64,000 nt of DNA from Mobula hypostoma. Taxonomy: Eukaryota. The notes under the pieces are model-generated. The model was given only the letters and a program-made list of their open reading frames with translations. It was not told the DNA's origin and ran no database searches. The position numbers were made by a program, and so were the translations under genes. Shown here piece by piece: positions 4,001 through 7,000 of this stretch (position 1 is the stretch's first letter; the number at the start of each line of letters is the position of its first letter). The stretch covers positions 19,778,001 to 19,842,000 of the forward strand of contig NC_086108.1 in NCBI RefSeq assembly GCF_963921235.1, read 5' to 3'.

Positions 4001-7000
4001 GACTTTTTCAGACCTGTCCTTCCCTAGCGGTTCGCTTAACAGCTCAATACAGCCATTCAAAATTTCCGCTTTTCCTTTCCCCGTCTCCTTCCTTGGGGCA
4101 AAGCACCTGGACGCAAAGTGTCCGGCTTTCCCACAATTATAACAGATGACCCCAGGAGACTTCCTACCAGACTGCTCCCGGTCTACCTTATCCTTTTCAC
4201 TAGTCCCCGGCTTACTTTCTGACTTTTCCGGCGGACTCTCCCCGCCGTCCTGACTACCCTTCTGCTAGCCTTTACTCGGGGCAAACTTCATTTTATGCGT
4301 CAACGCATACTCATCCGCTAACTTAGCAGTTGCGGCTAACGTGGCTGCCTCTTTCTCATCGAGGTAGGGTCTCATACCCTCAGGGACACAACCTTTAAAC
4401 TGCTCAATCAGGATCAGTTGTAGCAGTCTGTCATAATCCCCCTCTACCCCCTTCGAGGCGCACCAACGCTCACAATATGTTTGCATCTCACGGGCAAACT
4501 CCAAATACGTGCGGTCCCACTGCTTCCTTGCATTCCGGAACCTCTGCCGGTATGCCTCCGGGACCAACTCATAAATCCTGAGGATGGCCTCTTTCACCAC
4601 CTCATACCTCTGGGCATCTTCCGCGGACAAAGCTGAGTAAGCTTCTTGGGCCTTCCCTTTCAGTACACTCTGAAGTAAAACAACCCACTTATCCCTTGGC
4701 CAGTCCTGACTTATAGCCACTTTTTCGAAGTGGAGGAAGTACCGATCCACGTCGATATCGTCAAATGGGGGAACCAGCCTAACCTCCTGGGTCGCCCGGA
4801 ACCCTCCACCTTGGTTCGGCACGAGCCCCTGCTCGGCCCTTATCTTTAACTTCTCCAGCTCAAATTCCCTTTCCCTCTGTTTCCCTCTCTCTTCTCGCTC
4901 CCATTGCCTCTCTTTCTCCTCTCTCTCTAACTGTCTCTCTCTCTCTTTCTCTTCTCTTTCCAACTGTCGTACCCGGAACTCGTGCTCGAGTCTCAGTTTT
5001 TCAAGCTGTACCTGTACCGTGTCTCCAGCAGGTTTTTCAATAGACACCACCCCCAGCTCACCTTGGGGAAACACACCTTTAGATACATAGTGCTCTACAA
5101 TAGCTCTGTGTATCTCCTCTCTCCTCATTGTCGACTTCACCTTAGCAAGATTCAACTGTTTGGCCACAGCTACCAATTCCGATTTCCTGGCATCCTCTAA
5201 TGCCTCCAAGGTCGGCGCCTTTATAAATTCCTCAGCCTCCATTTCTGCTGTTTGTCTTTTCTTTCTTTCGGGAATCTTAACCCAATCAATTTACTCCGTC
5301 CCAAATTTAGCGTTCAAAATCGCGGACGAGAACCCCACTTATGTTACGTACCCCGTAACTGGGTTGCCAAACCAGCAGAAATGGATCACTCAGTTGGAGT
5401 CTGGAGTACTAGAACTAAGAAAGTTTTATTAAAGAAACAAGCAACACAGTAATCAAAAGGATAATAAATGCAACAGTTCAGCAATGATAACCACACATGT
5501 GCACAGAATTAAGATAACAGCATCAATCAAGCTCTATCGTTGTCTAGGGGTAAATGACCAAATTTAAAAGTGACTCAAAGTTCAGTCCAGTTTAGTAGTT
5601 CAGTTCGCAGTAATCGTTGCCATGGATGGACAACGTAGGGGAAGAGAGACAGAGAGAACAGGAACAACTGATCATTCAGCACAGCTTCACTCACAGACCG
5701 GCGAGATGGCTCACAAGCAGCTTTTGGGCAGGTCCTTGGTGATGTCACCTGAGGTCACCGACTGTGACCCCTCCTCCAGATGCGGTCGATCCTCTGCAGT
5801 GAACCCGGCACCCAGGCAAGGGCGGACACACACCGGGTTCCCGCTGATCGTACCTTTCCACCCTGGTCGTTGTCTGGTACTTCTCACCCACTCGTGAGAG
5901 GCGCACCGCTTCCAGGGTCTCGTTACCTCGGGTGGCGTGTGTCCTGCCTTAGCGAACCGGTCCCTTTTTATCCCCCTGCTGGGGTATCGCCTGTCCATCA
6001 CTTCAAACAGTTCAAGGTTCAAAGGGGGGAGCCGCTCCAGACAGCTCTCTCCCACGTCCCTTCATTACACATCTCCAGACGCTGCTCCATTGTTCCTTAT
6101 CTCTCCTTCCCCTGAGGGCAGGTGGCAGACCAACTGCTGATGCCACTGATGCTAGCCCAGGCCAGCAAACATCTTAATTTTTATGTGTATTCTCGTCACA
6201 ACGTTATGTCATGTTTTACAATAAATGAATGTCTAAGCCATGTAAAATGCTGCTTTGAAGGAATTATTGGGACCTGTAGCATTTGAAGGGTCACTTGCTG
6301 CATGACATTGGGAAGGAATTGCAGGATACGAAGCCAGTGTGGGACATGGGTCTGCAGTGAAAAACCATTTCCAACTTTGCCACCAATTGGTAGTCATGTT
6401 GGTCACAGCCCTGCAGAAAACAATGAAATGGAAGGGAAATGTGACACGGGGCAAAGAGTTGTTTTATAACTGGTGTCAGAACCTGAATTCCTTTTTCTGA
6501 AGTCTATAAGGGCAAGGGCTTTGCTAGCACCCGAAATAACAGGGAGAAACTCTTCCTTCAGTTAGTCCTGACGAAGGGTCTCGGCCTGAAACGTCGACTG
6601 CGCCTCTTCCTATAGATGCTGCCTGGCCTGCTGCGTTCACCAGCAACTTTGATGTATGTTGCTTGAATTTCCAGCATCTGCAGAATTCCTGTTGTTTGGG
6701 AGAAAATAATATTTTCTTTTCTCATCCTTCTGAAACTTGAGGCTCCGACTGCCAAATCAACATAAATGAGTGTGCATCGAACCCCTGCCTGAACAAAGGA
6801 GTCTGTGTGGATAAAGTGAACGGATACCAGTGTGTGTGTTCTCTCCCATATACTGGTAAGAGTTTATAAAGACATACTATGGTGTGCACTGTTGCTGCTG
6901 TGTTTCACAGGTATTGCACTGCAAAACAGTGCATTGTATCATCAGTGAATTTGAAACAGGACGGGGTTGACCTAAACTCATTGAAATAGATGTAAAACAT

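Follow-up and report, generated by a model that had tools for sequence, protein, structure and literature searches.

Does the minimal hammerhead ribozyme motif found at positions 6564–6599, which lies in sense orientation within an intron of Notch2, cut the pre-mRNA of this gene, and how did it come to be there? Analysis of the window, that is, the whole 64-kb stretch of DNA under study, leads to an answer in which we place high confidence: an intact hammerhead of the minimal type resides in a recent insertion of 148 bases, likely the 5'-truncated end of a Penelope-like element (PLE), and this hammerhead is predicted to be inert in Notch2.

The last exon in the window is 95% identical to a Notch2-like protein of the red stingray, which points to a ray as the host and to Notch2 as the gene. 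One NRR exon finds human Notch2 as its best match (178 bits vs. 156 and 151); another gives a tie between Notch1 and Notch2. The exons on either side of the motif are the following:

946–1090, plus strand: preceding Notch2 exon, counted as exon 14 (the intron is 1091–6741)
6742–6855, plus strand: Notch2 EGF exon counted as exon 15 (114 nt; second of the 21 coding exons in the window)

The numbering presumes that the last exon corresponds to exon 34 in human numbering. The predicted cut is located 146 nt upstream of the exon 6742–6855, in agreement with the distance of about 145 nt before exon 15 given in the original prediction, the exon number itself depending on this human numbering. The usual branch-point zone lies downstream of the predicted cut. 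The claimed closeness to the branch point region did not hold, the cut being at least about 105 nt upstream of that zone as it is generally placed. From the end of the insertion to the exon at 6742 there are 44 nt. The acceptor at 6725–6741 ends in GAG, with a purine-interrupted tract and an in-frame stop just upstream; this stop, at 6738–6740, directly precedes the exon. Most of the intron is occupied by an LTR retrotransposon (1433–6200, minus strand) with terminal repeats of about 860 bp that are 96% alike, TG...CA ends, a 4-bp duplication, a SCAN-domain frame and a zinc-knuckle frame. It resembles a SCAN-bearing Gypsy element; no RT domain was detected in its two long frames.

The motif is complete: all 12 of the 12 hammerhead core positions are intact, in sense orientation to Notch2. 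Its parts are distributed as follows:

6564–6599, plus strand: minimal type I hammerhead motif, which fits the consensus of PMC4209133 Fig. S3 except for U at 11.1
6564–6567, plus strand: stem I, 5' strand
6568–6574, plus strand: C3–A9 box (CUGANGA)
6575, plus strand: extra A after the C3–A9 box
6576–6579/6584–6587: stem II, pairs G-U, G-C, G-C and U-G, with a loop of 4 nt
6588–6591, plus strand: GAAA box
6591–6594: four-base palindrome, positions 15.1/15.2/16.2/16.1, which replaces stem III
6595: C17, the predicted cut being 6595/6596
6596–6599, plus strand: stem I, 3' strand, with one extra G-U pair 6563/6600

Helix I comprises five pairs including one G-U, helix II four pairs, and helix III is absent. 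The boxes, stems, extra A, palindrome and sense orientation that had been claimed for a complete minimal hammerhead were all recovered position by position. Stem II opens with a G-U pair in place of the G-C of the consensus (10.1/11.1). In metazoan PLE minimal hammerhead ribozymes (min-HHRs) the G10.1–C11.1 pair is the consensus at above 80% (PMC4209133), and G-U occupies this place in 8 of the 56 listed motifs by our own count (PMC4209133 Fig. S3). Across four sequencing runs C at 6587 accounts for 19%, 29%, 72% and 61% of the summed depth, T being the majority letter in two of the four runs and the minority letter in the other two. Because T is the majority in two of four runs and G-U occurs among the published motifs, the U at 11.1 (6587) is not private decay of the window copy.

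Taken alone, the two hammerhead boxes occur at chance level (9 matches in the window vs. 6.7 expected; 26 of 100 shuffles reach 9). The full descriptor, composed after the motif was seen, is satisfied once in the 64-kb window; any site for it was present in 22 of 1000 dinucleotide shuffles, and in 3 of 1000 when the palindrome was included too. A chance look-alike was rejected on the basis of these 3 shuffles in 1000 together with the repeat context. The original prediction had called for a genome-wide hammerhead search; the search covered the window, where Rfam at gathering score returned 0 matches and the full descriptor one site. It had also presented the motif as the best-preserved copy of its repeat and, indeed, this is the sole window copy meeting the full descriptor.

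The motif is embedded in an insertion with defined boundaries, the features of which are listed here:

6542–6549, plus strand: left target-site duplication (8 bp, exact)
6550–6697, plus strand: 5'-truncated repeat insertion, likely a Penelope-like pseudo-LTR end (148 bp, bounded by the duplications)
6550–6561, plus strand: leader, which is predicted to block the catalytic box 6568–6578 by pairing with it
6660–6697, plus strand: tail segment of about 35–40 nt with an approximate left edge, seen in sister copies by itself or in inverted orientation
6698–6705, plus strand: right target-site duplication (8 bp, exact)

From one end to the other, the insertion consists of a 14-nt pyrimidine-rich leader, the hammerhead, a body and the tail. 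An exact 8-mer at both ends was obtained in 19 of 200000 random placements. In public contigs, other members of the family extend beyond 6550 in the upstream direction, and for many of them the end point is 6697/6698. Contigs of 4 of the 24 listed sequencing runs (X1, X5, X19 and X24) were compared with window positions 6201–7200; two of these runs are DNA-like (X19, X24) and two RNA-like (X1, X5), the RNA status of X1 being a predicted one, since none of the listed runs is recorded as RNA. The X24 contig joins 6543 to 6700 without the element, a skip of 156 nt that equals 148 + 8, and the X19 contig skips 6514–6697 (184 bases) and carries 22 other letters in their place. Both contigs come from other species, two in number, and are 93–96% alike to the insertion flanks. 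The orthologous site is empty in both DNA-like runs (2 of 2), and both organisms are rich in the family. The empty site in two related species indicates that the insertion is recent and lineage-specific, and that it does not represent a conserved intronic ribozyme.

At E<0.001, a profile search of the window recovered 4 copies in sense and 7 in antisense orientation (11 in all), beyond which two further tail pieces are present; with the duplications and the empty sites, this substantiates the claim of a multicopy mobile repeat. About 25,000 family contigs were matched in each of two large runs. The summed depth over the repeat is ~1e5 times that of the flanks, a ratio that is not a copy number and that is of the same order as one copy per 6 kb in the window. 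The sister copies that we refer to are:

22993–23050, minus strand: tail-end piece of 58 bp, 95% alike to 6639–6696; no duplication found
30040–30175, plus strand: sister copy that begins at the hammerhead 5' edge, with a 15-bp duplication containing one mismatch
48352–48727, plus strand: longest sister copy, with inverted partner, leader, decayed hammerhead and tail; no clear duplication
56858–56990, minus strand: sister copy with a 39-nt tail inverted at the other end and an exact 14-bp duplication
59663–59697, plus strand: tail-only insertion flanked by exact 10-bp duplications

Clear duplications (8, 10, 14 and 15 bp) accompany 4 of the 9 copies tested, 5 of 9 being without. The 95% similarity of the piece at 22993–23050 to 6639–6696 places it in the same young subfamily. 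The 5' ends of the copies vary, from the tail only through 58 nt and 148 nt to about 330 nt in the longest, in which the inverted and internally deleted partner corresponds to 48352–48404 and the pyrimidine-rich leader extends over about 185 nt. The copy at 30040 is the sole other one in the window with an intact core, 23.5 kb downstream of 6564–6599; the first pair of its stem I is mismatched and there is one mismatch in its stem II.

The start of many copies coincides with the 5' edge of stem I (30040, 56950) and not with the cut site, and the loose ends of contigs peak at 6564/6565. The public contigs repeatedly show joints between opposite strands at 6565/6566. No peak of copy starts at the cut site 6596 is present among the 24 loose-end rows listed, 740 further rows existing. 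The stem I 5' edge (6564–6566) consists of a pyrimidine tract followed by AG and recalls the end of the Penelope intron of D. virilis (PMC4209133). One X19 contig joins 6596 back to 6564 over 6 letters, forming a very short head-to-tail hammerhead repeat, and one contig each in X1 and X5 joins 6702 back to 6566; elsewhere in the genomes concerned, such back-joins would be competent for dimer formation.

In seven older copies, the core is changed at 18 of 84 positions vs. 22 of 228 in the body, a comparison in which copy-finding favours the body. With the core more changed than the body, there is no sign of selection on catalysis in the inserted copies. Covariation of the stems in the family, on which the original prediction had partly staked itself, was evaluated on 8 of the 11 profile copies, three short or weak ones being excluded: in these few, decayed copies 75% of the cells are paired, and 414 of 500 shuffles score as high.

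Insertions of endonuclease-bearing PLEs are described as showing 5' truncation, an inverted pLTR, an optional tail of 30–40 bp and duplications of 8–10 bp (PMC3846280, PMC8557442). As the duplications, the truncation, the tail and the inverted partner match PLEs, and the motif fits the min-HHR consensus, the repeat is likely, judging from its sequence, to belong to the Penelope-like elements. The autonomous GIY-YIG/RT partner for which a search had been advised was not recovered in the window. Indeed, a six-frame scan of the window for GIY-YIG-like words gave one unconvincing match, Pfam showed no RT or GIY-YIG domain on the 2 repeat-covering frames, and a protein search with the frame across the longest sister copy returned 79 candidates, none at E<=0.001. 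Exact repeat patterns in three contig collections (metagenome contigs, prokaryote genomes and viral contigs) gave 0 loci, as expected for a fish repeat, a result that is uninformative on the family. A limited literature search retrieved no description of the ray family, which may be included among the five curated high-copy elements of a red stingray preprint or in the supplement of a retrozyme preprint; the motif is absent in a relevant context from the supplement of Craig et al.

The window also contains LINE-type RT frames (RVT_1, Pfam) at 18325–19278 and 61161–62786, minus strand, and many related 3' fragments across its length. As partners of the repeat, these two frames were rejected on their position far from any copy and their LINE-like appearance. 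A direct repeat of 508 bp (47330–47837 and 52568–53072, 97% alike) flanks the last Notch2 exon and probably represents two recent copies of a LINE tail.

We further analyzed the folding of the motif, with models that leave out tertiary contacts and proteins. The stability of the isolated 36-mer is not above that of shuffles (z -0.37). In nearest-neighbour folding the catalytic box pairs with the cleavage strand in the isolated motif, and with the leader once flanks are included. The predicted share of the open-core fold is <=1e-3 alone and 1e-4 to 1e-10 with flanks (<=1e-3 under each of the 15 conditions). The hairpin that the leader forms over the core reaches a probability of 0.88–1.0 in the two longest contexts. 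A forced double hammerhead has -15.2 kcal/mol vs. -37.4 for the best dimer fold, from which it is 22 kcal/mol away, each monomer having -14.3 (25 C). According to these models, the core of 6564–6599 would be occupied by mispairing. A pyrimidine run is likewise present in older copies where the leader is predicted to pair with the catalytic box (6550–6578), and in the parent element this leader could serve as an integral off switch.

Published motifs of the same type offer a comparison. For the min-HHR of S. mansoni, a single motif gave no cleavage and dimers low cleavage (PMC4209133), and the motif of the anole PLE required the protein of the element for cleavage (PMC11167929). The latter report also describes cleavage as not required for insertion, and no RNA-seq reads ending at the cut site. 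Cutting of Notch2 pre-mRNA by 6564–6599 appears unlikely, given that published analogues are inactive alone, that the core is predicted to be mispaired and that no intact partner is nearby. The original prediction that this copy could cut Notch2 intron 14 finds no support, to whatever effect: the site is empty in two species, the core is predicted to be sequestered, the published solo motif is inactive (PMC4209133), the anole motif is protein-dependent (PMC11167929), and the sole other intact-core copy, 23.5 kb away, has broken stems. Moreover, splicing was reported to remain efficient even when a hammerhead cuts within the intron, in contrast to its block by a fast HDV ribozyme (PMC2995048, with reference to Dye 2006 and Fong 2009). 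Within the compared region, the X1 contig (3366 nt) matches only 6740–6860 and the X5 contig (5359 nt) does likewise; these are exon-only matches as spliced transcripts would give, and they are consistent with use of the normal acceptor before 6742. Two intronic pieces of X1 are also identical to the window. No X1 contig spans the insertion junction, and the spliced contig is not tied to the carrier allele.

Could the repeat rather be a short non-autonomous element, SINE-like or solo retrozyme-like, which is self-transcribed and borrows a Penelope enzyme, while still being inert in Notch2? All copies in the window are short and none has coding sequence, many begin at or next to the hammerhead 5' edge (30040, 56950; peaks 6564/6565), the 6702-to-6566 join of the single X1 and X5 contigs is a tandem one, and animal retrozymes, detected also in one cartilaginous fish, are traced to PLE pLTRs in a preprint (10.64898/2026.07.22.740005). 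On the other hand, the 5' ends vary widely, from the tail only to about 330 nt, the shared sequence continues upstream of 6550, and neither a tRNA head nor a tandem array was evident on reading the copies, which leaves this origin improbable in our view. It is very improbable that the copy is armed in trans, by Penelope protein or by another transcribed copy via the palindrome, with Notch2 intron 14 being cut wherever the element is expressed. In its favour are a core with no change at any of the 12 bases and in sense orientation to the gene, cleavage of the anole PLE motif once protein is added (PMC11167929), and the family contigs of the two RNA-like runs (4758 and 5936 records). Against these stand the 22 kcal/mol separating the forced double hammerhead from the best dimer fold, the hairpin of the leader over the core (probability 0.88–1.0 in the two longest contexts), the report that a hammerhead-cut intron splices efficiently (PMC2995048) and the empty site in two relatives. 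The broader proposition, in which a young ray PLE family has seeded introns with many trans-armed half-ribozymes and 6564–6599 couples transposon activity to Notch2 output, strikes us as a very long shot.

The insert might also act through splicing, by offering pyrimidine-tract plus AG sites 58–180 nt upstream of the weak-looking GAG acceptor, use of which would add a stop or a frameshift. AG dinucleotides occur at 6561, 6565, 6615, 6643, 6674 and 6683 with 9–11 pyrimidines in the preceding 14 bases, there is the in-frame stop at 6738–6740, and in D. virilis Penelope the 5' edge of helix I marks the end of an intron (PMC4209133), a place taken here by AG 6564–6565. The RNA-like contigs of X1 and X5, however, start their match at the normal acceptor, and no extended exon is seen among the contig pieces listed, in which the repeat would mask one; we regard such an effect as barely credible. 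Notch2 is a dosage-sensitive gene. An intact motif on the sense strand of one of its introns could evoke a domesticated ribozyme like that of RECK, a notion to which we give next to no credence: the orthologous site is empty in both DNA-like runs (2 of 2), the element boundaries and duplication are still present, and stem III is missing, unlike in canonical motifs (PMC4209133).

Under the explanation that we retain, the truncated PLE end, the GIY-YIG nuclease of the element would have cut the Notch2 intron, the reverse transcriptase would have started at the tail end and halted after 148 nt, 14 nt past the hammerhead, and repair of the cut intron would have created the duplication. In the parent element the ribozyme would be slow and conditional, needing either a partner copy, with which pairing through the palindrome would make stem III, or the element's protein. 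The solo copy in a host intron, with neither partner nor protein, would likely be mispaired and removed with the intron, and may be expected to decay like its older sister copies. As it stands, this would be an ordinary mobile element fragment, dead on arrival. Being intact and dated, with a clean empty site in relatives, the copy nevertheless provides a ready substrate for asking if solo intronic min-HHRs can be armed by a partner or a protein and, if such arming does occur, a genome with ~1e5 copies would hold a hidden layer of pre-mRNA cutting.

Comparison with known systems places the locus as follows. Like the amniote intronic hammerheads of RECK, CTCL and DTNB, the motif is of type I and lies in a host intron; those are conserved across lineages, whereas the insertion described here is missing in two close relatives (PMC6155905). 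Non-LTR retrozymes (PMC7229834; 10.64898/2026.07.22.740005) share with it a type I hammerhead in vertebrates that needs a partner, a non-coding nature and kinship with PLE pLTRs, but they are described as tandem units of 170–400 nt with canonical hammerheads and circular RNAs, whereas the copy here is solo and minimal and has a duplication. Self-comparison of the window revealed no tandem neighbour of the 6550–6697 copy, and a tandem retrozyme at this place was rejected, the copy being solo. Truncated insertions of EN+ PLEs (PMC3846280, PMC8557442) resemble ours in their 5' truncation, short duplications, tail at either end and inverted partner at the 5' end; the copies here are very short, however, and their number by far exceeds that of the rotifer EN+ families of the same reports. 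In the green anole Poseidon PAc (Frangieh et al. 2024, PMC11167929), the hammerhead is likewise near the element end with stems I and II only, and two alternative 3' ends beyond it define a tail; that element is autonomous, its ORF begins in stem II and it has an AC-rich initiation loop, whereas neither such a frame nor such a loop was found here.

The motif itself resembles the metazoan PLE min-HHRs (Cervera and De la Pena 2014, PMC4209133), whose 2014 alignment of 56 motifs includes no cartilaginous fish. Shared features are a U-rich leader, a helix I of 4–5 bp, CUGANGA followed by one extra base, G at 10.1, the absence of helix III, palindromic 15.2/16.2 and mostly solo, scattered copies; differences are the U for C at 11.1 and the lack of a linked ORF here. 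The Neptune entry from Acropora in the same source is identical to 6564–6599 in the first box and the palindrome, and its stem II, of 4 bp, is likewise capped by a tetraloop. By this comparison of sequences, 6564–6599 is a motif that would work like a PLE min-HHR.
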